From NCBI GenBank assembly GCA_964432085.1, contig CAYSME010000001.1, positions 1 to 48,026 on the forward strand: a stretch of 48,026 nucleotides of DNA, written 5' to 3'. The position numbers and the translations under genes are program-made. Numbering within the stretch: position 1 is the stretch's first letter; each line of letters opens with the position of its first letter. Shown here piece by piece: positions 52 to 41,792 of the stretch. Below the pieces are notes generated by a model. It was not told where the DNA came from. It did not search any database and was given only the letters and a program-made list of their open reading frames with translations. The stretch comes from an uncultured Gammaproteobacteria bacterium. GTDB lineage: Bacteria; Patescibacteriota; Microgenomatia; UBA12405.

Positions 52-414
52 TTAAGAAGAAATTTTAACCTTGGATAACAAAGAGTTTAACATTTTTGCC
101 ACTTCTATTGATAAGTTAATCAGATTATTAAACTCATTTTCAGTAATATATTCCAAATCTTTAGACAATTCTAAAAAATATTGAGTTTCTACTAATGAGC
201 CCCTGGCCTGAATCAAAAATTGACAAAATTCTTTGTTTGTCTTTCTAGCGCTGCCTTCAACTATATTTGCTGGAACAGAGCTCGAAGCTCTTCTCAACTG
301 AGATATTATCCCAAATATTTCATCTTTGGGATATTTTTTTGTAATTTTATATATATCCAAAGTATATTGATGGGCCTTTCTCCAAACTAACATATTGTGG
401 TACAACATAAACAA
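52..414 (-). CDS. four-helix-bundle protein (23S rRNA intervening-sequence protein family)
   Basis: 120-aa ORF with family hallmarks VWRKAHQ, QLRRASSSVPANIVEG and ARGSLVETQYFLEL. The track start at 414 is TTG; in-frame ATGs at 408 and 393 are alternative starts. Confidence 0.8.
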   Translation of the reverse strand: MFMLYHNMLVWRKAHQYTLDIYKITKKYPKDEIFGIISQLRRASSSVPANIVEGSARKTNKEFCQFLIQARGSLVETQYFLELSKDLEYITENEFNNLINLSIEVAKMLNSLLSKVKISS

Positions 415-4975: not shown

Positions 4976-6268
4976 ATGAAAATTTTACTGATTAGCCATA
5001 TTTTTCCACCCGCCATTGATGGCGGTTCAAAAGTCATTCATAAACTCGGTCAATACCTCGAATCTCAAAATCATCAAACTCTTTATCTCTCGTCAAACTG
5101 TTCCAGCACTGATGATTTTGTCAAATCTAAATTTAAAATTTCCCTTTTTAAGGGAAAAACCGGTTTATCCGGAAAGGATTTTATTAAAATTCCAGTTTAC
5201 CATCATCTCCGTCGTCCATTAAAATTAATAGAAAAAATTTTTGCCTTATTCATAAATCATAAATCATACTTCATAAATCTACTTAAAGTTTTCCAAAAAG
5301 GCCCTATCTTTAAAGTTTTTCCTTTTATAAAAACTATTTTTATAATTCTAAAATTTAAACCAGATTTAATCATTGCTGGCCCACTTCCAACAACTGTAAT
5401 TATTTATGCGTTATGGTTAAAGAATTTAGTTAATAAATTAAGAGGTGGATTTTGCCAACTTTTAATTAATGCTTCTTTTCACCCCACTGACCCAGATTTT
5501 CACAAAAAACCACTTATTAACACCTTAAAAAAGGCAGATTTTTTATGGACCCTAACTCAATTCGAAACCGATTATTTCATAAAAAATTTTAATATTGATC
5601 CTCAAAAAATAATTCTCGCCGGCAACGGAGTTGATCTAAAATTTCTTAAAAAAGAAAATAAAATTTCCCTTTTTAAGGGAAAAACCGGTTTATCCGGAAA
5701 GGATTTTAACATCTTATTTATCGGTTCTCTTGCCGCCCACAAACGTGTTGATCTTCTTATTAAATCTTTTTCTGATTTAATTATATCCTCCCTTCATCAA
5801 GGGAGGACCCCGATTCATCGGGAGGTGGGTTTAACCATCGCTGGACAAAAGACATTGTTTTATCCCCAAATTGAAAAACTTATCAATTCTCTTAATCCAA
5901 AAATAAAATCTAAAATAAAATTTGTTTTTAATTTTAAATCCAAAAATTTATCAAAACTAATAGATAATTGTTCGGTCTTAGTTTTACCTTCTGTTCAGGA
6001 AAGTTTCGGATTGGTAGTCATCGAAGCCTGGGCTCGACAAAAACCGGTTATTTGTGCCGATATTCCAGCCTTAAAAGAATTAGTTAAAAATTCAGATGGG
6101 GGATTGTTGTTTAAGGTTGACGACCAAAATGATTTAACTAAACAAATCAAATTTATTCTAGATAACCCCAAAAAAGCAGATCAAATGGGATTAAATGGTT
6201 TTAATTATGTTAAAAATAATTACACTTGGAATAAAGTTGGAAATAAAATATGCCAAAAAATATTATGA
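4976..6268 (+). CDS. glycosyltransferase family 4 (GT-B), carrying three in-frame hairpin-element inserts
   Basis: N-terminal MKILLISHIFPPAIDGGS and C-terminal E-x7-E region PSVQESFGLVVIEAWARQKPVICADIPALKELV. The peptide ISLFKGKTGLSGKDF occurs twice, and SSLHQGRTPIHREVG occurs once. Confidence 0.85.
   Translation: MKILLISHIFPPAIDGGSKVIHKLGQYLESQNHQTLYLSSNCSSTDDFVKSKFKISLFKGKTGLSGKDFIKIPVYHHLRRPLKLIEKIFALFINHKSYFINLLKVFQKGPIFKVFPFIKTIFIILKFKPDLIIAGPLPTTVIIYALWLKNLVNKLRGGFCQLLINASFHPTDPDFHKKPLINTLKKADFLWTLTQFETDYFIKNFNIDPQKIILAGNGVDLKFLKKENKISLFKGKTGLSGKDFNILFIGSLAAHKRVDLLIKSFSDLIISSLHQGRTPIHREVGLTIAGQKTLFYPQIEKLINSLNPKIKSKIKFVFNFKSKNLSKLIDNCSVLVLPSVQESFGLVVIEAWARQKPVICADIPALKELVKNSDGGLLFKVDDQNDLTKQIKFILDNPKKADQMGLNGFNYVKNNYTWNKVGNKICQKIL
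5134..5183. repeat. GC-rich double-hairpin mini-element, copy A (exact 50-bp duplicate of 5659-5708)
   Basis: taaaaTTTCCCTTtttAAGGGAAAaaCCGGtttatCCGGaaaggatttta. Hairpin 1 is 8 bp with a 3-nt loop; hairpin 2 is CCGG/CCGG. It is in frame in the GT4 CDS. Confidence 0.85.
5659..5708. repeat. GC-rich double-hairpin mini-element, copy B (exact 50-bp duplicate of 5134-5183)
   Basis: Identical 50-mer lying 525 bp (175 codons) downstream of copy A in the same reading frame. Confidence 0.85.
5787..5830. repeat. GC-rich double-hairpin mini-element, copy C
   Basis: CCTCCCTTcatcAAGGGAGG-ac-CCCGATtcATCGGG-aggtgggt. It has the same two-hairpin layout, lies in frame in the GT4 CDS, and is closely similar to copy F. 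Confidence 0.65.
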
Positions 6269-6708
6269 TTATAATCACTTTTGTTTTGGTTATTACTGCC
6301 GGCGTCTTAACCTGGCGTCTTTTTTTTCATCTTCCAACACCAAACACCGTTAAAATTAAAATCAATAACACCAACTATCAAATAGAATTAGCCAAAACTA
6401 CCGCCCAAAAAATAAAGGGGTTATCTAATAGAACCGAACTTTGTAAAAATTGCGGCATGCTTTTTATTTTTGGATTTGAAGGTAATTTGCCATTCTGGAT
6501 GAAAGACACCCTTATTCCTCTCGATATGATCTGGATCAACAAAGACGGAAAAATTGTCGACATTCAAACGATTACCGAAATCAGTTCTAATAAAATTTAT
6601 CAAAATCAAACTCCAGCCCAATACGTTCTAGAGTTAAATGCTAATGATTGTCAAAAAATCAACCTAAAAATAGGGGATATAATTGACTTATCTAAAATTG
6701 GTGAATAA
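6250..6708 (+). CDS. DUF192 domain protein with N-terminal membrane anchor
   Basis: MLFIF ... FWMKDTLIPLDMIWINKDGKIV ... YVLELN, typical of DUF192/COG1430. Confidence 0.7.
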   Translation: MPKNIMIIITFVLVITAGVLTWRLFFHLPTPNTVKIKINNTNYQIELAKTTAQKIKGLSNRTELCKNCGMLFIFGFEGNLPFWMKDTLIPLDMIWINKDGKIVDIQTITEISSNKIYQNQTPAQYVLELNANDCQKINLKIGDIIDLSKIGE

Positions 6709-7789
6709 TAAAAATATTAAAAAGAAAAAAAAGCAGAGCCACGCCCTGTCAAGGGAGGGGATTGGGGAGGGTTTTGGTTTTTCCATTATAATTCCAAATT
6801 ACAACGGTGCCAGATTTCTGGTTGATTGTTTAAAATCACTTCATCAAGCTATAATTAATTGTCCAAAATCCCAATTTGAAATAATCCTCGTTGATAATAA
6901 TTCCTATGATAATAGCCTGGAAATTTTTGAAACCATAATTCCCAAAAATTTTAATTATCGGATTTTATTAAATTCCCAAAACAAGGGATTTGCTCCGGCA
7001 GTAAACCAAGGCATCAAAAAGGCCAAATATGATTATGTTGTCTTATTAAATAATGATCTAAACATGGAACCAGATTGGTTTCAGTTAATTTCTGATGAAA
7101 TTAAAAAAAACTCAAATTCCAAAATAGCCACTTTTTTTGGTACTGTTTTAAACAAAAATGGAACTCATTTTGAATCTCAAGGCTTCAAATTTTATCCCGA
7201 AGGTCGGGTTGAAAATATGTCCAATAGAAAGATTTTTACCCCATCCTTGTCAAAGGAGGGGGTTGGGGGTAGATTGATTTGGGGTGCTTCCGCCTCACTT
7301 ATTGTCTATAATAAAAAAATTATCAATAAAATTGGATTATTTGACCAGGATTTCTTCGCCTATTGTGAAGATGTTGATCTTTCACTTCGCCTTCACAATT
7401 TAGGTTATCAGACTCTTTATATCCCAAATGCTATTTCTTACCATCTTGGCGGTGGAACCAGCAATCGAATGAAAAATATCCGAAGTCGTTTGTCATATCG
7501 AAACTGGTTTTTCATTATTTTAAAAAATTATTCAACCAAAGATTTTTTAATCAATTTTCATAAAATTTTTACAGAAAGACTCCATAACTTTTCATATTTC
7601 TTAAAAGAAACAATCTCTATTTATAAATGGAAATCTGTCATTTTCTTTCCTTTTGACCTTCTAAAAACTTGGTTTGAAATTTTAATCTATTTTCCTAAAA
7701 TGTTTAAAAAGCGAAAAGAAATCCAAAAATTGCTTGCCCGACATAGCTTTATAAGCGAAGGCGGGGTAAAATTACATAATAAAATATGA
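6683..7789 (+). CDS. glycosyltransferase family 2
   Basis: SIIIPNYNGARFL, ILVDNNSYDNS, and the ED motif region YCEDVDLSLRL. The start is uncertain (TTG 6683, TTG 6698 or GTG 6701). It carries elements D and E in frame. Confidence 0.85.
   Translation: MTYLKLVNNKNIKKKKKQSHALSREGIGEGFGFSIIIPNYNGARFLVDCLKSLHQAIINCPKSQFEIILVDNNSYDNSLEIFETIIPKNFNYRILLNSQNKGFAPAVNQGIKKAKYDYVVLLNNDLNMEPDWFQLISDEIKKNSNSKIATFFGTVLNKNGTHFESQGFKFYPEGRVENMSNRKIFTPSLSKEGVGGRLIWGASASLIVYNKKIINKIGLFDQDFFAYCEDVDLSLRLHNLGYQTLYIPNAISYHLGGGTSNRMKNIRSRLSYRNWFFIILKNYSTKDFLINFHKIFTERLHNFSYFLKETISIYKWKSVIFFPFDLLKTWFEILIYFPKMFKKRKEIQKLLARHSFISEGGVKLHNKI
6744..6773. repeat. hairpin mini-element, tgtcaa subfamily, copy D
   Basis: CCCTgtcaAGGGaggggattggggaggg. 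By eye about 20 of 28 positions match copy E. It is translated as ALSREGIGEG at the GT2 N-terminus. Confidence 0.45.
7239..7270. repeat. hairpin mini-element, tgtcaa subfamily, copy E
   Basis: TCCTTgtcaAAGGAgggggttgggggt, translated as PSLSKEGVGG inside the GT2 CDS. A possible degenerate further copy lies at about 7746-7770 (SFISEGGV). Confidence 0.45.
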
Positions 7790-8922
7790 TCATTGGCATT
7801 GATATCTCCACTATCCCCTACAAAACCGGTGTCAGCAATTATACTCTCAACCTCATCCGCAACTTAGTAAAAATCGATAAAAATAACAAATATAAACTCT
7901 TTTATTCATCGATGAGACTACCGCTACCTAAAGAAATAATAGAACTCCAAAAAAGACATAATAATATAAAAATTTACCAATTCAAACTACCGCCAACTTT
8001 CCTGCAAATTCTTTGGAATAAGTTTCGGCTTTTTCCAATTGAGTTTTTTATTGGTAACTGCGACATTTTCCACACTTCAGATTGGACTCAACCACCAACC
8101 ATAAAAGCCAAAACCATCACTACTGTTCACGACCTTACTCCTTTCCTGCATCCGGAATGGCATCACCTGAAAGTCATTAAAGCTCATAAAAATAAAATGA
8201 AAATAGCCACCAAAAAATGTTCTAAATTCATTTGTGTTTCTCAAAGCACCAAAAATGATTTGCTAAAAATTTTTCCCAAAATCAACATGTTAAAAATCGA
8301 AATCATCTATGAAGCTGCCGAAGATAAATATCAAAAATTTTTAAAATTATCCAAAGAAACTCAGCAAAAGAAAAAGGAAGCCATTAAAAAACAATATGAC
8401 CTCGATAAATTTATTCTGGCTCAAGGAACCAGAGAACCACGAAAAAATCTAAAAAGATTAATTGATGCTTTTGTTATTTTTAAAAAAAACAATCCCGGTT
8501 GTAAAGTTGATTTAGCTATAGCTGGCAAATATGGTTGGGGTCAGGATGTTGATGGAGCCAAAGACCCGTCTGTAAAAATTCTTGGATTTATACCAGAAAA
8601 AGACATGGTAGCTCTTCATGCCAGCGCTATTTGTCTGGTTTATCCATCCCTTTATGAAGGTTTTGGTTTACCTCTTATTAAATCATTAAAAGTTGGCACT
8701 CCCATTATCACCAGTAATGTCTCTTCGATGCCCGAAGTTGGAGGAGATGCCGCTCTTTATATTAATCCAAATTCTACTCCAGATTTAACCAAAGCCATCA
8801 CCAAAATAATTAAAATATCTACAGTTCGTAAAAAATTAATTCTCAATGGCTTAACTCAATCTAAAAAATTTAGTTGGTTAAAAACCGCCGCTCAAACTTT
8901 AGAAGTTTATAAAAAAATATGA
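7786..8922 (+). CDS. glycosyltransferase family 4
   Basis: MIIGIDIS start and PSLYEGFGLPLIKSLKVGTPIITSNVSSMPEVGGDAALYINP. ATGA overlap with the upstream gene. Confidence 0.85.
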   Translation: MIIGIDISTIPYKTGVSNYTLNLIRNLVKIDKNNKYKLFYSSMRLPLPKEIIELQKRHNNIKIYQFKLPPTFLQILWNKFRLFPIEFFIGNCDIFHTSDWTQPPTIKAKTITTVHDLTPFLHPEWHHLKVIKAHKNKMKIATKKCSKFICVSQSTKNDLLKIFPKINMLKIEIIYEAAEDKYQKFLKLSKETQQKKKEAIKKQYDLDKFILAQGTREPRKNLKRLIDAFVIFKKNNPGCKVDLAIAGKYGWGQDVDGAKDPSVKILGFIPEKDMVALHASAICLVYPSLYEGFGLPLIKSLKVGTPIITSNVSSMPEVGGDAALYINPNSTPDLTKAITKIIKISTVRKKLILNGLTQSKKFSWLKTAAQTLEVYKKI

Positions 8923-10034
8923 TTATTGGTATCGATGGCAACGAAGCTAATATAAAAAATCGAGTTGGTGTAGGTCAATATGCCTTCAATCTTCTAAAAA
9001 ATATTTATTTGTTGGATCAAAAAAACCAATATATCATTTATCTAAAAGACCAACCATTACCAGATTTACCAAAAGTTAGGCATAATTGGCAATATAAAGT
9101 TTTTGGGCCTCAAAAACTTTGGACGAGATTTACGCTGCCCTTTCATCTGTTTACAGAAAAAGTAGCCCTAAATCTTTTTTATTCTCCTAGTCATTATTCC
9201 CCTCAATTTGCTCCTTGCCCAACCATCCCTACTATCCATGATCTTGGTTATCTACAATTTCAAAATCAATTTACTCCAAAAGACCTCTATCAATTAATTA
9301 ATTGGACTAAAACATCCATCAAAAAAGCAACTCATATCATCACAGTTTCTAATTTTTCTAAAACCGAAATCGAAAAAATATACCAAATTGATCCTCAAAA
9401 AATAACCATTGCTTACAATGGTGTTGAAGAGCCATTAAAAATTGATGATAAAAAACAAAAAGAAATTTTAAAATTTTACGATTTACAATCTAAATCCTAC
9501 TATTTATATTTAGGTACCTTAAAACCCAATAAAAACATTCCCTTTTTAATTAGATCTTTTGCTCAATTTTTAAAAATAACTGATCAAGAAACCAAATTAG
9601 TCATCGCTGGTAAAAAAGGTTGGCTTTTCGATGAAATTTTTGCCACCATTAAAAAAGAGGGAATAGAAGACAATATTATTTTTACCGATTTTATTGATAA
9701 CTCTCAAAAAACTGTCTTATATCAAAATGCTAAAGCTTTAATTATGCCTAGCACTTACGAAGGATTTGGTATTCCCGTCATTGAAGCTATGAAACTAAAT
9801 ACCCCTGTAATTTCCAGCAATATTTCACCATTAAAAGAAGTAATTGAAAACAACGGTTTTTATTTTGACCCTACCAATCAAGAAGAATTAATTCATCAAT
9901 TAATTAATTTTGAAAAGCTTAATTCAAAAGAAATTAAAAAGATAACAGATAAGGCCAAAATCCGAGCTGATTTTTTCACTTGGAAACAAACCGCTCAATC
10001 CGTCCTTTCCGTTTTTGAAAAATTTAAAAAATAA
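8919..10034 (+). CDS. glycosyltransferase family 4
   Basis: MIIGIDGN start and PSTYEGFGIPVIEAMKLNTPVISSNISPLKEV. ATGA overlap with the upstream gene. Confidence 0.85.
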   Translation: MIIGIDGNEANIKNRVGVGQYAFNLLKNIYLLDQKNQYIIYLKDQPLPDLPKVRHNWQYKVFGPQKLWTRFTLPFHLFTEKVALNLFYSPSHYSPQFAPCPTIPTIHDLGYLQFQNQFTPKDLYQLINWTKTSIKKATHIITVSNFSKTEIEKIYQIDPQKITIAYNGVEEPLKIDDKKQKEILKFYDLQSKSYYLYLGTLKPNKNIPFLIRSFAQFLKITDQETKLVIAGKKGWLFDEIFATIKKEGIEDNIIFTDFIDNSQKTVLYQNAKALIMPSTYEGFGIPVIEAMKLNTPVISSNISPLKEVIENNGFYFDPTNQEELIHQLINFEKLNSKEIKKITDKAKIRADFFTWKQTAQSVLSVFEKFKK

Positions 10035-10038
10035 GACT

Positions 10039-10087
10039 TCTCCCTTTCTTTAAGGGGAGATGTCCCGATTCATCGGGACAGAGGGGT
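10039..10087. repeat. GC-rich double-hairpin mini-element, copy F (intergenic)
   Basis: CTCCCTTtctttAAGGGGAG-at-GTCCCGATtcATCGGGAC-agaggggt. It lies between the GT4 stop (10034) and the likely acetyltransferase start (10111). Confidence 0.65.
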
Positions 10088-10110
10088 TTAAATCTGATAA
10101 AATTTACAAT

Positions 10111-10704
10111 ATGAAAGACCGTACCGGTAAAAATTTAAATTCACCAGAAATTTCTCAAAAAATTATTAATCGCATCAAAACTATTTGTCTTGAATTTTGG
10201 CTATTAGTTTTACGAATTGTTGGAATCATTCCTCTTCATTTCATTAGAAAAATTTTCTATATTGCCTCTGGGATCAATATGCCATGGAATTCCACTATTC
10301 ATATCGGTGCTAATTTTTTTAAACCTTCCAATATTAAAATCGGCCACGACACCATCATTGGTGATCATTGTTTCTTAGACGGCCGAGCCAAACTAACCAT
10401 CGGAAACCATGTCGGCATTGCCAGTCAAGTTTTGATCTACAATGACGAACATAATATTCATTCTGATAATTATGAAAATTCTTTTGGTCCAGTTGAAATT
10501 GGAGATTATGTTTTTATCGGCCCCCGAGCCATAATTTTACCCAACATAAAAATTGGTAAAGGCGCCGTTGTTGCCGCCGGAGCTGTTGTTACCAAAGATA
10601 TTCCTGATTTTGAAATTTGGGGTGGAATTCCTGCCAAAAAAATAGGGGATAGAGAAAACAAAAAACCAAATTATAAACTTGGTCGTGCCATGTTATTTCA
10701 GTAA
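10111..10704 (+). CDS. hexapeptide-repeat (left-handed beta-helix) O-acetyltransferase
   Basis: IGHDTIIGDHCFLDG, IGNHVGIASQV, IGDYVFIGPRAIILPNIKIGKGAVVAAGAVVTKDIP and WGGIPAKKI. The start was moved from 10060 to ATG 10111 because the first 17 track codons translate repeat element F. Confidence 0.75.
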   Translation: MKDRTGKNLNSPEISQKIINRIKTICLEFWLLVLRIVGIIPLHFIRKIFYIASGINMPWNSTIHIGANFFKPSNIKIGHDTIIGDHCFLDGRAKLTIGNHVGIASQVLIYNDEHNIHSDNYENSFGPVEIGDYVFIGPRAIILPNIKIGKGAVVAAGAVVTKDIPDFEIWGGIPAKKIGDRENKKPNYKLGRAMLFQ

Positions 10705-11251: not shown

Positions 11252-12194
11252 TCCAATTCTCTCGATAATTATCCTATCGTTTAATACCAGCCAAATAACT
11301 ATCGACTGTCTCCGATCTATTTTCCAAGACAAGGGCCTTAAAGAAATTCCTTTTGAAATCATTATCATCGACAATGACTCCAAAGATGATTCTATTTCTC
11401 AAATCAAAAAATTTAAAAAATCATTAAAAAGTGAAAATTGTGAAATAAAAATTATAGAAAATAAATTCAATGGTGGTTTTGGTAAAGCCAATAATCAAGG
11501 CATAAAAATTGCCAAAGGCAATTATATTTTATTATTAAATTCTGACACCATCATTCTTCATTCTGCTATTAGTCAGTCATTAAACTGGCTCTGTTCTCAC
11601 CCCGAAGTTTCTGTTTGTACCGCTCAGCTATTAAACAAAGACAAAACCATCCAGGCTTCAGGTGGTTTTTTTCCAAATCTTTCGAATATTTTTGCTTGGT
11701 GTTTAAACTTAGACGATTTACCCTTTTTTAATAAAATCATCAAACCTTTTCATCCCCACACTCCTAATTTTTACACCCACGACAAATTTTTTCTAAAAGA
11801 CCATCAACAGGACTGGGTTACTGGTGCTTTTATGTTGATTCGCGCCTCACATTTAAAACCAACTGGTGGTTTTGATGAAAATTATTTTATGTATGGCGAA
11901 GAGGTTGAACTTTCTTATCGCATCAAAAAACAAAACCCTGAATTCCAAACTTGGTATTTAATCGGTCCTCAAATTATTCATCTAGGTGGAGCTTCAGCTC
12001 AAAACAGAATTGATCCCCTAATAAACGAATATCGAGGAGTTTTATCTTTCTTTAAAAAACACAAAAGCGATTTCCAATATAAAATTGTCAAACATTTAAT
12101 CAAATTCAATGCTTTTAGCCGCGGCATTATATACTCTTTAAGAGGTAATAAAAACACTGCCTCTCTTTACTTCCAAATATGTTCAAAAATATAA
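11244..12194 (+). CDS. glycosyltransferase family 2
   Basis: LSIIILSFNTSQITIDCLRSI, IIIIDNDSKDDS, LLLNSDT and MYGEEVELSYR. Confidence 0.85.
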   Translation: MNNPILSIIILSFNTSQITIDCLRSIFQDKGLKEIPFEIIIIDNDSKDDSISQIKKFKKSLKSENCEIKIIENKFNGGFGKANNQGIKIAKGNYILLLNSDTIILHSAISQSLNWLCSHPEVSVCTAQLLNKDKTIQASGGFFPNLSNIFAWCLNLDDLPFFNKIIKPFHPHTPNFYTHDKFFLKDHQQDWVTGAFMLIRASHLKPTGGFDENYFMYGEEVELSYRIKKQNPEFQTWYLIGPQIIHLGGASAQNRIDPLINEYRGVLSFFKKHKSDFQYKIVKHLIKFNAFSRGIIYSLRGNKNTASLYFQICSKI

Positions 12195-33651: not shown

Positions 33652-34175
33652 AACTACAACAAGAAATAGAAAAATATATCGGTCTGCCTTATAGCAAGAA
33701 TATTATTAAAGACGGAAAAATTACCAAAGAACAAGTTTTGGGAGGTAAAGGTAATTGTCTTCAACTCGCCACTGAAACTATTAGATTAGCTCAAAAACAA
33801 AATATTGATTTAACTAAATTAAATAATCAGAAATTCTACAATTTTCAAAAAAGAAATCATATTGGCATTGATTGTTCAGGTTTGGTTTCCAATTTACTAA
33901 ACTTTTATTTCGGAACAGATTTAAATCCAAGAAAAACCTCTGCTGATATGTTGACCTCATCTCCGCTTTCTAAAGAAATAAAACCAAGTGAAATTAAAAC
34001 TGGTGATTTGATTCGTCAAAAAAACGGCAACCATATTTTATTTATCATTGAAAAACAAGGCGATAAAATCATTTACGTCGACAGTTCTCGTGAAGGCAGG
34101 GGAGTAAAGTTTGGAAAAGTCGACATTACCGATAAAAATTTTCAACACCAAGGATTTTTTCGATTAACAATCTAA
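33633..34175 (+). CDS. NlpC/P60 (C40)-like cysteine peptidase without signal peptide
   Basis: IGIDCSGLVSNLL (catalytic Cys context) and GDLI ... NGNHILFII (His context). The start was set to ATG 33633, which overlaps the mraY end by 19 nt. There is no N-terminal hydrophobic segment. Confidence 0.5.
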   Translation: MVRTKLELQQEIEKYIGLPYSKNIIKDGKITKEQVLGGKGNCLQLATETIRLAQKQNIDLTKLNNQKFYNFQKRNHIGIDCSGLVSNLLNFYFGTDLNPRKTSADMLTSSPLSKEIKPSEIKTGDLIRQKNGNHILFIIEKQGDKIIYVDSSREGRGVKFGKVDITDKNFQHQGFFRLTI

Positions 34176-34180
34176 ACTAT

Positions 34181-34208
34181 GTAGAGACGTTGTACACAAC
34201 GTCTCTAC
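34181..34208. terminator. perfect GC-containing palindrome between convergent genes (possible bidirectional terminator / dispersed hairpin element)
   Basis: GTAGAGACGTTGT-ac-ACAACGTCTCTAC has 13-nt arms. There is no adjacent U/A tract on either side. Confidence 0.45.
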
Positions 34209-41288: not shown

Positions 41289-41540
41289 CTAATAATAAAC
41301 TTCTCTTCGATGAGCTACTTTTAGTATATAAATCTTATTTCCTTTTATTTCAAAAATGACTCGATAATCTCCAATTCGATATCTATATTCACCTAATTTA
41401 AAATTAACCAATCTTTTCGATATTTTTAATGGATCATTTCTCAGTAAAATCATTTTTTTACCAATTCTTTTTTTAACCACACTGTCTAATTTACCAATTT
41501 CTGATACCGCTTTTTTTGTAATTAAAATCTCATATTCCAC
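41289..41540 (-). CDS. RelE/ParE-family type II toxin
   Basis: 83 aa with KLGEYRYRIGDYRVIFEI ... IYILKVAHRREVY, typical of RelE/ParE. There is a 3-nt gap to the upstream antitoxin gene. Confidence 0.8.
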   Translation of the reverse strand: MEYEILITKKAVSEIGKLDSVVKKRIGKKMILLRNDPLKISKRLVNFKLGEYRYRIGDYRVIFEIKGNKIYILKVAHRREVYY

Positions 41541-41543
41541 TAT

Positions 41544-41792
41544 CTATATTTTGCCAAAAATTTCTTCAAAAGGATACACCTCACCATTTTTAATATTTTT
41601 TCGGGCCTCTTCTATATCTTTTTTATATTCAGGATTAGCCAAAGCTAATAAATCTTCCAACATATCAATATTTATAATTGCTGATTTAATTTTTCCTCGA
41701 CTAGAAATCAAAACAAAATTTTTCTTGTTCTCGACCAAATCTAATGTATCAGCTAAATTGTTTCTTAAAATTGTACTTGTTACTGTGTTCAT
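41544..41792 (-). CDS. Phd/YefM-family type II antitoxin
   Basis: 82 aa with an N-terminal TILRNNLADTLDLVENKKNFVLISSRGK pattern. It is directly upstream of the toxin. Confidence 0.75.
   Translation of the reverse strand: MNTVTSTILRNNLADTLDLVENKKNFVLISSRGKIKSAIINIDMLEDLLALANPEYKKDIEEARKNIKNGEVYPFEEIFGKI

Follow-up and report, generated by a model that had tools for sequence, protein, structure and literature searches.

We found that six short, G+C-rich elements in the stretch of DNA analysed here, the 48,026 nucleotides of contig CAYSME010000001.1 (assembly GCA_964432085.1; referred to as the window), share one layout: a pyrimidine arm (Y), a loop, a purine arm (R), a linker, and a mirrored purine/T arm (R'). 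The window has a G+C content of approximately 31%, and the source genome is represented by this one contig. We consider it probable (approximately 0.7) that the elements belong to a dispersed, structure-defined DNA repeat family with the design of a class II intrastrand purine-motif triplex. In structural kind the family is like the BoxC/PIT repeats, and in behaviour it is like the Rickettsia palindromic elements (RPEs). The original prediction had described double hairpins with a G-rich tail. All six elements are present where it had placed them and form a real family, far beyond chance; the tail, however, does not complement the 3' arm of hairpin 1 but mirrors it, and the two covary. Hairpin 2 is interchangeable and absent from two copies (D and E). 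The copies are as follows (GT4 and GT2, family 4 and family 2 glycosyltransferases).

5139..5181, + strand: A1, long form, at GT4 loop site 1 (three-arm scanner).
5664..5706, + strand: A2, long form, at GT4 loop site 3, immediately ahead of the ILFIG strand (50-mer identical to A1).
5786..5832, + strand: B, long form, at GT4 loop site 4 before the LTIAG strand (three-arm scanner).
6739..6773, + strand: D, short form, in the GT2 N-terminal extension (relaxed scan).
7239..7275, + strand: E, short form, inside GT2 (relaxed scan).
10039..10089, + strand: C, long form, intergenic (three-arm scanner).

The elements are 35-51 nt in size, and every window copy has the sense orientation. In all of them loop 1 has 3-4 nt. 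The linker is a GC hairpin ("hairpin 2", which we read as a clamp) in A1, A2, B, and C, where loop 2 measures 15-19 nt, and is 2-3 nt in D and E. A1 comprises Y at 5139-5146 (TTTCCCTT), the loop TTT, R at 5150-5157 (AAGGGAAA), the clamp hairpin at 5160-5172 (CCGGTTTATCCGG), and a third arm at 5173-5181 (AAAGGATTT) with one G>A departure from the mirror. A2 lies 525 nt downstream, and the 50-mers at 5134-5183 and 5659-5708 are identical; since this private G>A change is common to the third arms of both, one of the two copies was evidently copied from the other. B has Y at 5786-5794 (TCCTCCCTT), the loop CATC, R at 5799-5807 (AAGGGAGGA), the clamp at 5809-5822 (CCCGATTCATCGGG), and the third arm at 5823-5832 (AGGTGGGTTT), and scores 8/8 for Watson-Crick (WC) pairs and 8/8 for triads. 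C is made of Y at 10039-10047 (TCTCCCTTT), the loop CTTT, R at 10052-10060 (AAGGGGAGA) with one T.G wobble, the clamp at 10062-10079 (GTCCCGATTCATCGGGAC), and the third arm at 10080-10088 (AGAGGGGTT). In D a degenerate Y arm at 6739-6747 (CCACGCCCT, 7/9 paired) is followed by the loop GTCA, R at 6752-6760 (AGGGAGGGG), the linker ATT, and the third arm at 6764-6772 (GGGGAGGGT; WC 6/8, triads 8/8). E carries Y at 7239-7248 (CCCCATCCTT, 1 mismatch), the loop GTCA, R at 7253-7262 (AAGGAGGGGG), the linker TT, and a third arm at 7265-7275 (GGGGGTAGATT, 1 mismatch).

We scanned for the whole Y-R-R' arrangement with 7-nt arms, at most 1 mismatch, and a linker of 1-26 nt. On the + strand of the window this three-arm scanner reported A1, A2, B, and C and nothing else, and on the - strand 0 elements; in shuffles the mean was 0.33 and the maximum 2. 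CCCTT-N(2-6)-AAGGG occurs 4 times in the window, each time on the + strand, against 0.30 expected, and for CCCGATTCATCGGG there are two occurrences where 0.04 would be expected. Compared to shuffled sequences, B and C form much more stable folds, both as RNA (z = -4.1 and -2.3) and as DNA (z = -3.8 and -4.9). At strict and relaxed settings of the scanner the rest of the 48 kb is without an additional copy.

Related loci were collected with a seed made of hairpin 1 and hairpin 2 only, from one genome per species (GTDB representatives), which gave 77 loci where approximately 1 chance match would be expected by our own arithmetic from composition. In 522.5 kb of these loci 197 three-arm elements were reported, compared to 2-3 in Markov shuffles. 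More than half of them (117/197) have no match to the seed pattern, including elements with the Y/R/R' cores CCCCTCCTT/AAGGAGGGG/GGGGTGGATT, TCCCCCTT/AAGGGGGA/AGGGGGTT, and CCCCTCTTT/AAAGAGGGG/GGGGAGATT and with unrelated linker hairpins such as CCCGCAGCAGCGGG, GTCCGAAGGAC, GTCACGAAGTGAC, and GCCCGCAGGGC.

Across the related loci the tail follows the purine arm. R arms of AAGGGAGG have the tail GGAGGGAT or GGTGGGTT, those of AAGGGGAG have GAGGGGTT, those of AGGGAGAA have AAGAGGGA, and those of AAGGGAAG have GAAGGGTT. A test free of circularity used 162 non-seed, perfect 8-bp Y-R hairpins that were chosen before any tail search. Within 36 nt downstream of these hairpins, a mirrored tail matched at 8/8 in 43 cases and at 7/8 or better in 74, while a direct-repeat control tail did so in 9 and 42, and a mirrored tail upstream in 0 and 6; a directly repeated purine arm thus describes the tail far less well than a mirrored one and was set aside. 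When tails were swapped between elements, the fraction matching at 7/8 or better was 0.23, against 0.46 observed. Furthermore, for each of 15 distinct R 8-mers the commonest partner was its own mirrored tail. We also considered a switch, in which the tail would pair by WC rules with the pyrimidine arm. This model fits poorly, since antiparallel pairing of the tail with Y, G-T allowed, reached 8/8 in 2 of 96 elements.

In the purine (reverse-Hoogsteen) triplex motif, class II, the strand runs in the order 5'-Y-R-third strand-3' (Hoyne et al. 2000; Holder et al. 2015, PMC4666352), the triads are G*G-C, A*A-T, and T*A-T, and the third strand is antiparallel to the purine strand (PMC4666352). All six window copies have this arm order, and the mirror tests and triad counts agree with the rules of the class. 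Among 155 elements we counted 635 C-G*G, 280 T-A*A, 206 T-A*T, 58 T.G*G, and 50 C-G*A triads, and the five remaining types total 11, so that 1121 of the 1240 triads are canonical. The third arm almost never contains C, and its T lies almost solely opposite A-T pairs.

Clamp hairpins can be wholly different in sequence between copies with the same arms. Since the sequence of hairpin 2 is free and its stem is kept, we read it as a clamp that would draw R and R' to each other. C-GAA-G and C-GCA-G are found among the clamp loops. From the work of Hirao, Yoshizawa, and colleagues, these are reportedly unusually stable DNA mini-hairpin loops.

The elements might instead be palindromic mobile elements of the RPE, repetitive extragenic palindrome (REP), or miniature inverted-repeat transposable element (MITE) type, in which two independent hairpins are recognised by a transposase (a REP-associated tyrosine transposase, RAYT, or an IS200/IS605 TnpA) and the tail is non-structural. 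In-frame copies in many genes, presence or absence at orthologous sites, and genome-specific subfamilies all agree with this explanation, and both hairpins are stable as DNA or RNA. A two-hairpin model, however, does not predict that tail and R covary as mirrors over 15 arm variants, nor short forms that lack hairpin 2, nor a hairpin 2 that is unconserved in sequence. The elements have no terminal inverted repeats (their ends are TTCTCCC... and ...GGGGTTT) and no 5' GTAG, and the RAYT-like or other transposase that the original prediction had proposed to look for was not seen among the window open reading frames (ORFs) scanned, which were a part of the ORFs. The flank logo shows A/T richness only, with no conserved target or target-site duplication, although the closest orthologs, at 72% identity or less, are too divergent to fix exact insertion borders and offer no strain-level empty sites, so this duplication test is weak. 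RPEs, moreover, are approximately 150 bp long (PMC10969869). We therefore regard a conventional palindromic element as improbable.

We found that the family is widely dispersed. According to the organism labels in the records, the loci come mostly from Candidatus Shapirobacteria, Woesebacteria, and Parcubacteria, or from 'uncultured Gammaproteobacteria' with 34% G+C, and 17 of the 77 seeded loci are from Bacteroidota. Within the window the copies are confined to the glycan locus, as had been proposed; in relatives they are dispersed and mostly intergenic, with approximately 70% of copies between genes, approximately 30% in genes, and both orientations represented. In loci of the candidate phyla radiation (CPR), 36 of 121 elements lie within long ORFs, 20 sense and 16 antisense, and among the intergenic elements both flanking ORFs are on the element's strand in 21 cases and both on the opposite strand in 31; by one tally this amounts to 36 sense or co-oriented and 47 antisense or anti-oriented copies. 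The antisense hosts are real genes: 9 of 10 antisense copies checked lie in ORFs with clear Pfam domains, namely Wzy_C (three), GH18, TsaD, methionyl-tRNA synthetase (MetRS), DsbD_2/HMA/cupredoxin, DUF4012, and cytidylyltransferase. The TsaD homolog holds two in-frame antisense three-arm elements (L071, 218-262 and 536-586), and its Pfam match is in three stretches; the MetRS (L063) holds one, at 1351-1383, also in frame. The seed pattern had 0 matches in viral contigs, and therefore we see no sign of a phage vector.

The loci labelled 'uncultured Gammaproteobacteria' (L001, L003, L007, and approximately 27 more from metagenome-assembled genomes, MAGs) have 34% G+C and the same element subfamilies as CPR loci; the label looks doubtful. 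In Zeaxanthinibacter sp. JTS-RE343, a Bacteroidota MAG (L029, L048, L064, L077, and other contigs), two high-copy three-arm families occur, CCTCCCTT/AAGGGAGG/GGAGGGAT and CCCCTCTTT/AAAGAGGGG/GGGGAGATT. They lie on opposite strands approximately 35 nt apart with conserved flanks, in units with a period of approximately 390 nt, and these pairs recall the inverted pairs of type A and type B TMECO in E. coli.

These distributions bear on whether the elements act as RNA, for instance as a terminator, attenuator, small RNA, or protein-binding mRNA element on transcripts of the glycan locus. The sense orientation of every window copy would suit such a role, as would tails that end in a T run, the position of copy C after a stop codon, and T.G as the commonest hairpin-1 mismatch (23, compared to 8 C.A). 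This last excess is suggestive, yet as proof of strand-specific folding we set it aside, since it is confounded by AT mutation pressure and by selection on R and R', of which it is partly a product. No hairpin stands immediately before the T run, and no promoter or terminator activity was found for BoxC (PMC4666352). Rfam gave no match at gathering scores in the whole window, with only below-threshold hits at E<=1 in 5000-10200. Because the relatives show no orientation preference, Rfam gave no match, and RNA reportedly does not adopt purine-motif triplexes (PMC4666352), our data favour action as DNA, and we consider a structured RNA motif very unlikely.

We next describe the genes that hold the elements, with two further features found in them.

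Glycan locus, + strand: GT4, DUF192 protein, GT2, two further GT4s, hexapeptide transferase, another GT2, and Wzy-like protein.
4976..6268, + strand: GT4 host gene, family 4 glycosyltransferase of 430 aa, carrying A1, a remnant, A2, and B.
6683..7789, + strand: GT2 host gene, family 2 glycosyltransferase, carrying D, E, and a C-terminal indel.
5438..5453, + strand: remnant at GT4 loop site 2, linker and third arm only (TTAAGAGGTGGATTTT, encoding LRGGF; ortholog comparison).
7733..7765, + strand: 11-residue indel LARHSFISEGG at the GT2 C-terminus, GC-rich and hairpin-forming, 33 nt (ortholog alignment).

Five of the six window copies are inside coding sequences (CDSs), whose frames stay open and encode the peptides that the original prediction had quoted. 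Insert peptides of the window genes include ISLFKGKTGLSGKDF, encoded by A1 (residues 55-69), and SSLHQGRTPIHREVG; A2 covers residues of approximately 229-243, and E covers residues 186-198. GT4 orthologs number in the hundreds at 56-72% identity, with lengths of 386-465 aa, and an alignment of 28 of them shows four variable loops. Three syntenic loci (L078, L079, and L080) were compared with the window codon by codon. The sites are listed below; length ranges are from the 100-113 of 120 orthologs that match each site's anchor pattern.

Site 1, range 16-41 aa, window 23 aa: long A-type in the window; short form TCCTGCCCT gtca AGGGAAGGA ttt AGGAAGGGT in L078; empty in L079; L080 as in L078.
Site 2, range 11-32 aa, window 17 aa: linker and third arm in the window; empty in L078 and L079; complete short form in L080.
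Site 3, range 14-43 aa, window 25 aa: long A-type in the window; GC-rich insert with no three-arm fit in L078; empty in L079; short form of the GCCCTGTCAAGGGAGGG subfamily in L080.
Site 4, range 7-25 aa, window 20 aa: long form B in the window; short form in L078; empty in L079; B arms with the clamp CCCCGCAGCAGCGGGG in L080.

The family consists of genome-specific subfamilies that turn over at fixed loop sites, undergo partial deletion, and decay. The L079 ortholog, of 386 aa, is empty at all four sites, in agreement with the proposal that the peptides are lineage-specific insertions. At site 2, the short form of L080 (TTCCCCTCCTTT cgtc AAAGGAGGGGA tta AGGGGTGGATTT) occupies the codon position of the remnant, and the window has lost the Y-loop-R hairpin by deletion. 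The GCCCTGTCAAGGGAGGG subfamily is represented by D in the window GT2, at site 3 of the L080 GT4, and at site 4 of the L078 GT4, in frames that differ (PVKGGVRGGF in GT4, ALSREGIGEGF in the window GT2). The N-terminal extension that holds D is present in approximately half of the aligned GT2 orthologs. E is perfect in L078 (CCCCCTCCTT / AAGGAGGGGG / GGGGGTGGATT); the window copy has two mismatches and the L080 copy more, and in L079 the element has decayed to a more A/T-rich sequence. Since many GT2 orthologs hold an unrelated peptide of equal length at this site, E is probably old; it presumably arose by insertion.

The stop codon at 10032-10034 precedes C, and the ATG at 10111 follows it. 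Because the orthologous hexapeptide transferases of L079 and L080 are 197 aa, a length that fits a start at ATG 10111 and not at 10060, the extension MSRFIGTEGFK at 10060 is an artefact of ORF calling, as the original prediction had suspected. In L079 nothing is inserted at the site of C; L078 and L080 have a different GC element there. That element (L078, approximately 11905-11960; L080, approximately 12090-12150) is a composite, GTAGGGGCGTGATTTATCACGCCC...GGGTTTGATTAATCAAACCCCTAC, with outer GTAGGGG/CCCCTAC arms and two inner hairpins, one of which has a clamp-like ATTTAT loop; a second repeat family seems to share insertion spots with the first.

Three observations concern the same genes. 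The A1 and A2 50-mers form direct repeats 525 nt (175 codons) apart within one gene, and recombination between them would delete, in frame, most of the N-terminal GT4 domain; the GT4 ortholog of L073 (Parcubacteria label) has the same repeat pair 495 nt apart. An extra GC hairpin, CCCGA-AGG-TCGGG, lies in GT2 at 7196-7208, 30 nt upstream of E, with no length polymorphism there among orthologs. A degenerate seventh copy had been suspected at approximately 7746-7770. This stretch has no Y, R, or R' arms and was reported by neither scanner, so we rejected it as a family member, although it lies inside the polymorphic indel at 7733-7765, which is present in some orthologs, absent in others, and folds weakly (z = -1.5).

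The inserts fall in loops, as the original prediction had proposed, two of them just ahead of the ILFIG and LTIAG strands; in the AlphaFold models each one is in a segment of low confidence with no regular structure. In the AlphaFold model of GT4 (mean predicted local distance difference test score, pLDDT, 82), values below 50 are found at residues 43-66, which hold most of A1, and at 228-241, which hold most of A2 (229-243), and B belongs to the loop formed by residues 275-283, which joins a helix to the LTIAG strand. In that of GT2 (mean pLDDT 79), the segments that score under 50 are 1-29 for D, 189-196 for E, and 355-368 for the C-terminal indel. Alignment gaps account for part of the low pLDDT. 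We saw no sign that the host proteins need the insert peptides, which may well bring them no benefit.

It could be argued that the peptides came first, as conserved functional glycosyltransferase motifs, ancestral or selected, with the DNA repeats as a by-product. PSLSKEGVGG and ALSREG-type peptides do recur in orthologs of 53-75% identity, and many species carry elements in these four GT4 loops. Homologous residues at the same positions had been named as the mark of ancestral sequence, and many orthologs do carry elements there, yet these belong to different subfamilies and lie in different frames, some sites are empty, and some orthologs have just 386 aa. Read in a different frame, one and the same DNA element encodes another peptide (PVKGGVRGGF compared to ALSREGIGEGF), most family members are intergenic, the inserts are in low-confidence loops, and the same elements lie antisense in unrelated genes. 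From these sequence comparisons, elements of different subfamilies and frames at shared sites, together with empty sites, argue for hot spots and turnover, probably not an ancestral peptide, and we consider peptide motifs most unlikely as the origin. A reading as G-quadruplex-forming sequences is hardly tenable: the four G runs of D (GGG A GGGG ATT GGGG A GGG) and of E would permit it, but it fits these two copies only, since A-type copies have too few G runs, those of the long forms are paired or separated by the clamp, and a quadruplex has no need of a positionwise mirror rule that includes A/T opposite A.

Several points weigh against a triplex-designed repeat family. Triplex formation is deduced from sequence rules, and WC-only DNA folds (ViennaRNA) leave the tail single-stranded. 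Mobility is deduced from distribution alone, and the analyses above found neither a target-site duplication nor terminal inverted repeats nor a cognate enzyme. The A-type arms are A/T-rich, with three G*G-C triads only, and both A-type window copies have a third-arm mismatch. The arms of D and E are degenerate, and because the relaxed settings also yield approximately 1.5 matches per shuffled window, membership of these two copies rests on their perfect orthologous copies. At the E site, orthologs with no element are of the same length within 1 aa, a few being 2-3 aa longer, and E could be very old or have evolved in place. Sites shared by many orthologs could reflect selection for the peptides or for DNA structures. 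Finally, the related loci were picked by the seed, which biases copy densities and the commonest clamp loops.

How a class II repeat family might fold in the cell, spread, and possibly function can be pictured as follows. On a single-stranded or unwound strand, Y and R would form hairpin 1, and R' would lie in its major groove. The linker would be a mere turn: in some copies a stretch of 2-5 nt, in others a stable GC mini-hairpin that can be exchanged freely and acts as a clamp on R and R'. Copies would multiply within genomes by a route to which we assign no enzyme, and would be homogenised; they would be gained, swapped between subfamilies by gene conversion, partly deleted, and worn by point mutation. 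In a CDS, copies would persist only where their length keeps the frame and the peptide, typically rich in Gly, Ser, Lys, Arg, Pro, and Leu, falls in a permissive surface loop, which here would mean four GT4 loops and two to three disordered GT2 segments. The recurrence at four GT4 loops may be due to a selection filter, a target preference, or conversion between resident elements.

A bolder possibility, which we consider doubtful, is that the elements represent an undescribed class of mobile or self-propagating DNA, in which a folded single-strand triplex, shut by its clamp, is recognised by an enzyme of the host or of the element. If true, their spread would contribute in a major way to the lineage-specific loop insertions of CPR/Patescibacteria proteins, the essential TsaD and MetRS among them, and could also promote recombination and instability in surface-glycan loci. 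Under the class II repeat reading itself, the family gives a concrete origin to part of the loop insertions in these CPR proteins. The natural covariation, with at least 15 arm variants and many clamps, offers a ready mutational data set for asking if purine-motif triplexes have a role in cells. Gene callers and annotators should also be warned of spurious N-terminal extensions such as MSRFIGTEGFK at 10060.

Other features of the window are separate from the family. A perfect palindrome with a 12-bp stem, GTAGAGACGTTG-TACA-CAACGTCTCTAC, lies at 34181-34208 in the spacer after a gene ending at 34175; it starts with GTAG, ends with CTAC, and is like a REP or a bidirectional terminator, with no three-arm layout. 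Between ftsZ and ileS, at 41289-41792 on the - strand, two small ORFs in an overlapping cluster (83 and 82 aa) look like a putative RelE/ParE-type toxin and Phd/YefM-type antitoxin. The ORF at 52-414 (- strand) matches the 23S rRNA intervening-sequence protein family (E = 4e-39) and has a sub-threshold bAvd-like hit. A tRNA scan of the window found none.

We found no description of such elements in CPR bacteria in the literature searched. Among known systems, REP sequences and bacterial interspersed mosaic elements (BIMEs), with their RAYTs, and IS200/IS605-derived elements are likewise short GC-rich hairpins, mostly intergenic, that form composite clusters and are thought to act as folded single-stranded DNA. 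Unlike REP/BIME, our elements have no 5' GTAG, REPs have no third arm, and no RAYT or TnpA was present among the window ORFs scanned; the GTAG...CTAC element at the site of C in L078 and L080 is separate from the three-arm family. Unlike MITEs, the elements have neither terminal inverted repeats nor a target-site duplication that we could find. The GC-rich double-hairpin elements (DHEs) of fungal mitochondria, as in Allomyces, are similarly small, sit in AT-rich genomes, and occur both between genes and in frame in coding sequence. Unlike the window elements they are found in organelles, and we know of no mirrored third arm in them. RPEs, of which ten Rickettsia-specific families are known (PMC10969869), are like the elements described here in that they appear selfish and are inserted into many unrelated genes of small AT-rich genomes, in frame and where the protein fold allows, and in this respect the original comparison with RPEs holds. 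The elements are set apart from RPEs by size (35-51 nt compared to approximately 150 bp) and by design (the three-arm mirror/complement rule), not by sequence comparison.

The closest likeness is to BoxC/PIT/TMECO, repeats known for 25 years with no assigned function and described as strictly intergenic. TMECO follows the pattern CCCTCNCCC-N3-6-GGGNGAGGG-N3-GGGNGAGGG, which had 0 matches in the window and 80 loci; E. coli MG1655 has 23 copies, always intergenic, with no strand bias and no link to a transposase, and TMECO folds as a triplex in vitro and has been linked to local rearrangements of the genome (PMC4666352). The elements share with these repeats the arm order, the triad rules, stems of 8-11 nt, a loop 1 of 3-6 nt, and, in short forms, a loop 2 of 2-5 nt, including TTA (L080) as in TMECO type A. 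They are likewise dispersed in many copies with no orientation bias and no linked transposase, and show local instability in the form of partial deletions and replacement. Published searches limited loops to 1-6 nt (ITxF) or 0-10 nt (Hoyne et al.) (PMC4666352). The 2-3 nt loop 2 of D and E falls within such short loops, while that of A1, A2, B, and C is a hairpin, and the long-form second loop in general, a GC hairpin of 13-18 nt, exceeds both limits, so the nested-clamp form would escape published search rules. The sequence also differs, approximately 30% of copies are within genes, unlike those of E. coli, and the hosts are Patescibacteria/CPR and Bacteroidota, whereas BoxC/PIT is known from E. 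coli, other Proteobacteria, and cyanobacteria (PMC4666352). The family described here would thus extend intrastrand triplex repeats to hosts in candidate phyla and Bacteroidota, to a nested clamp hairpin, and to in-frame copies within genes.

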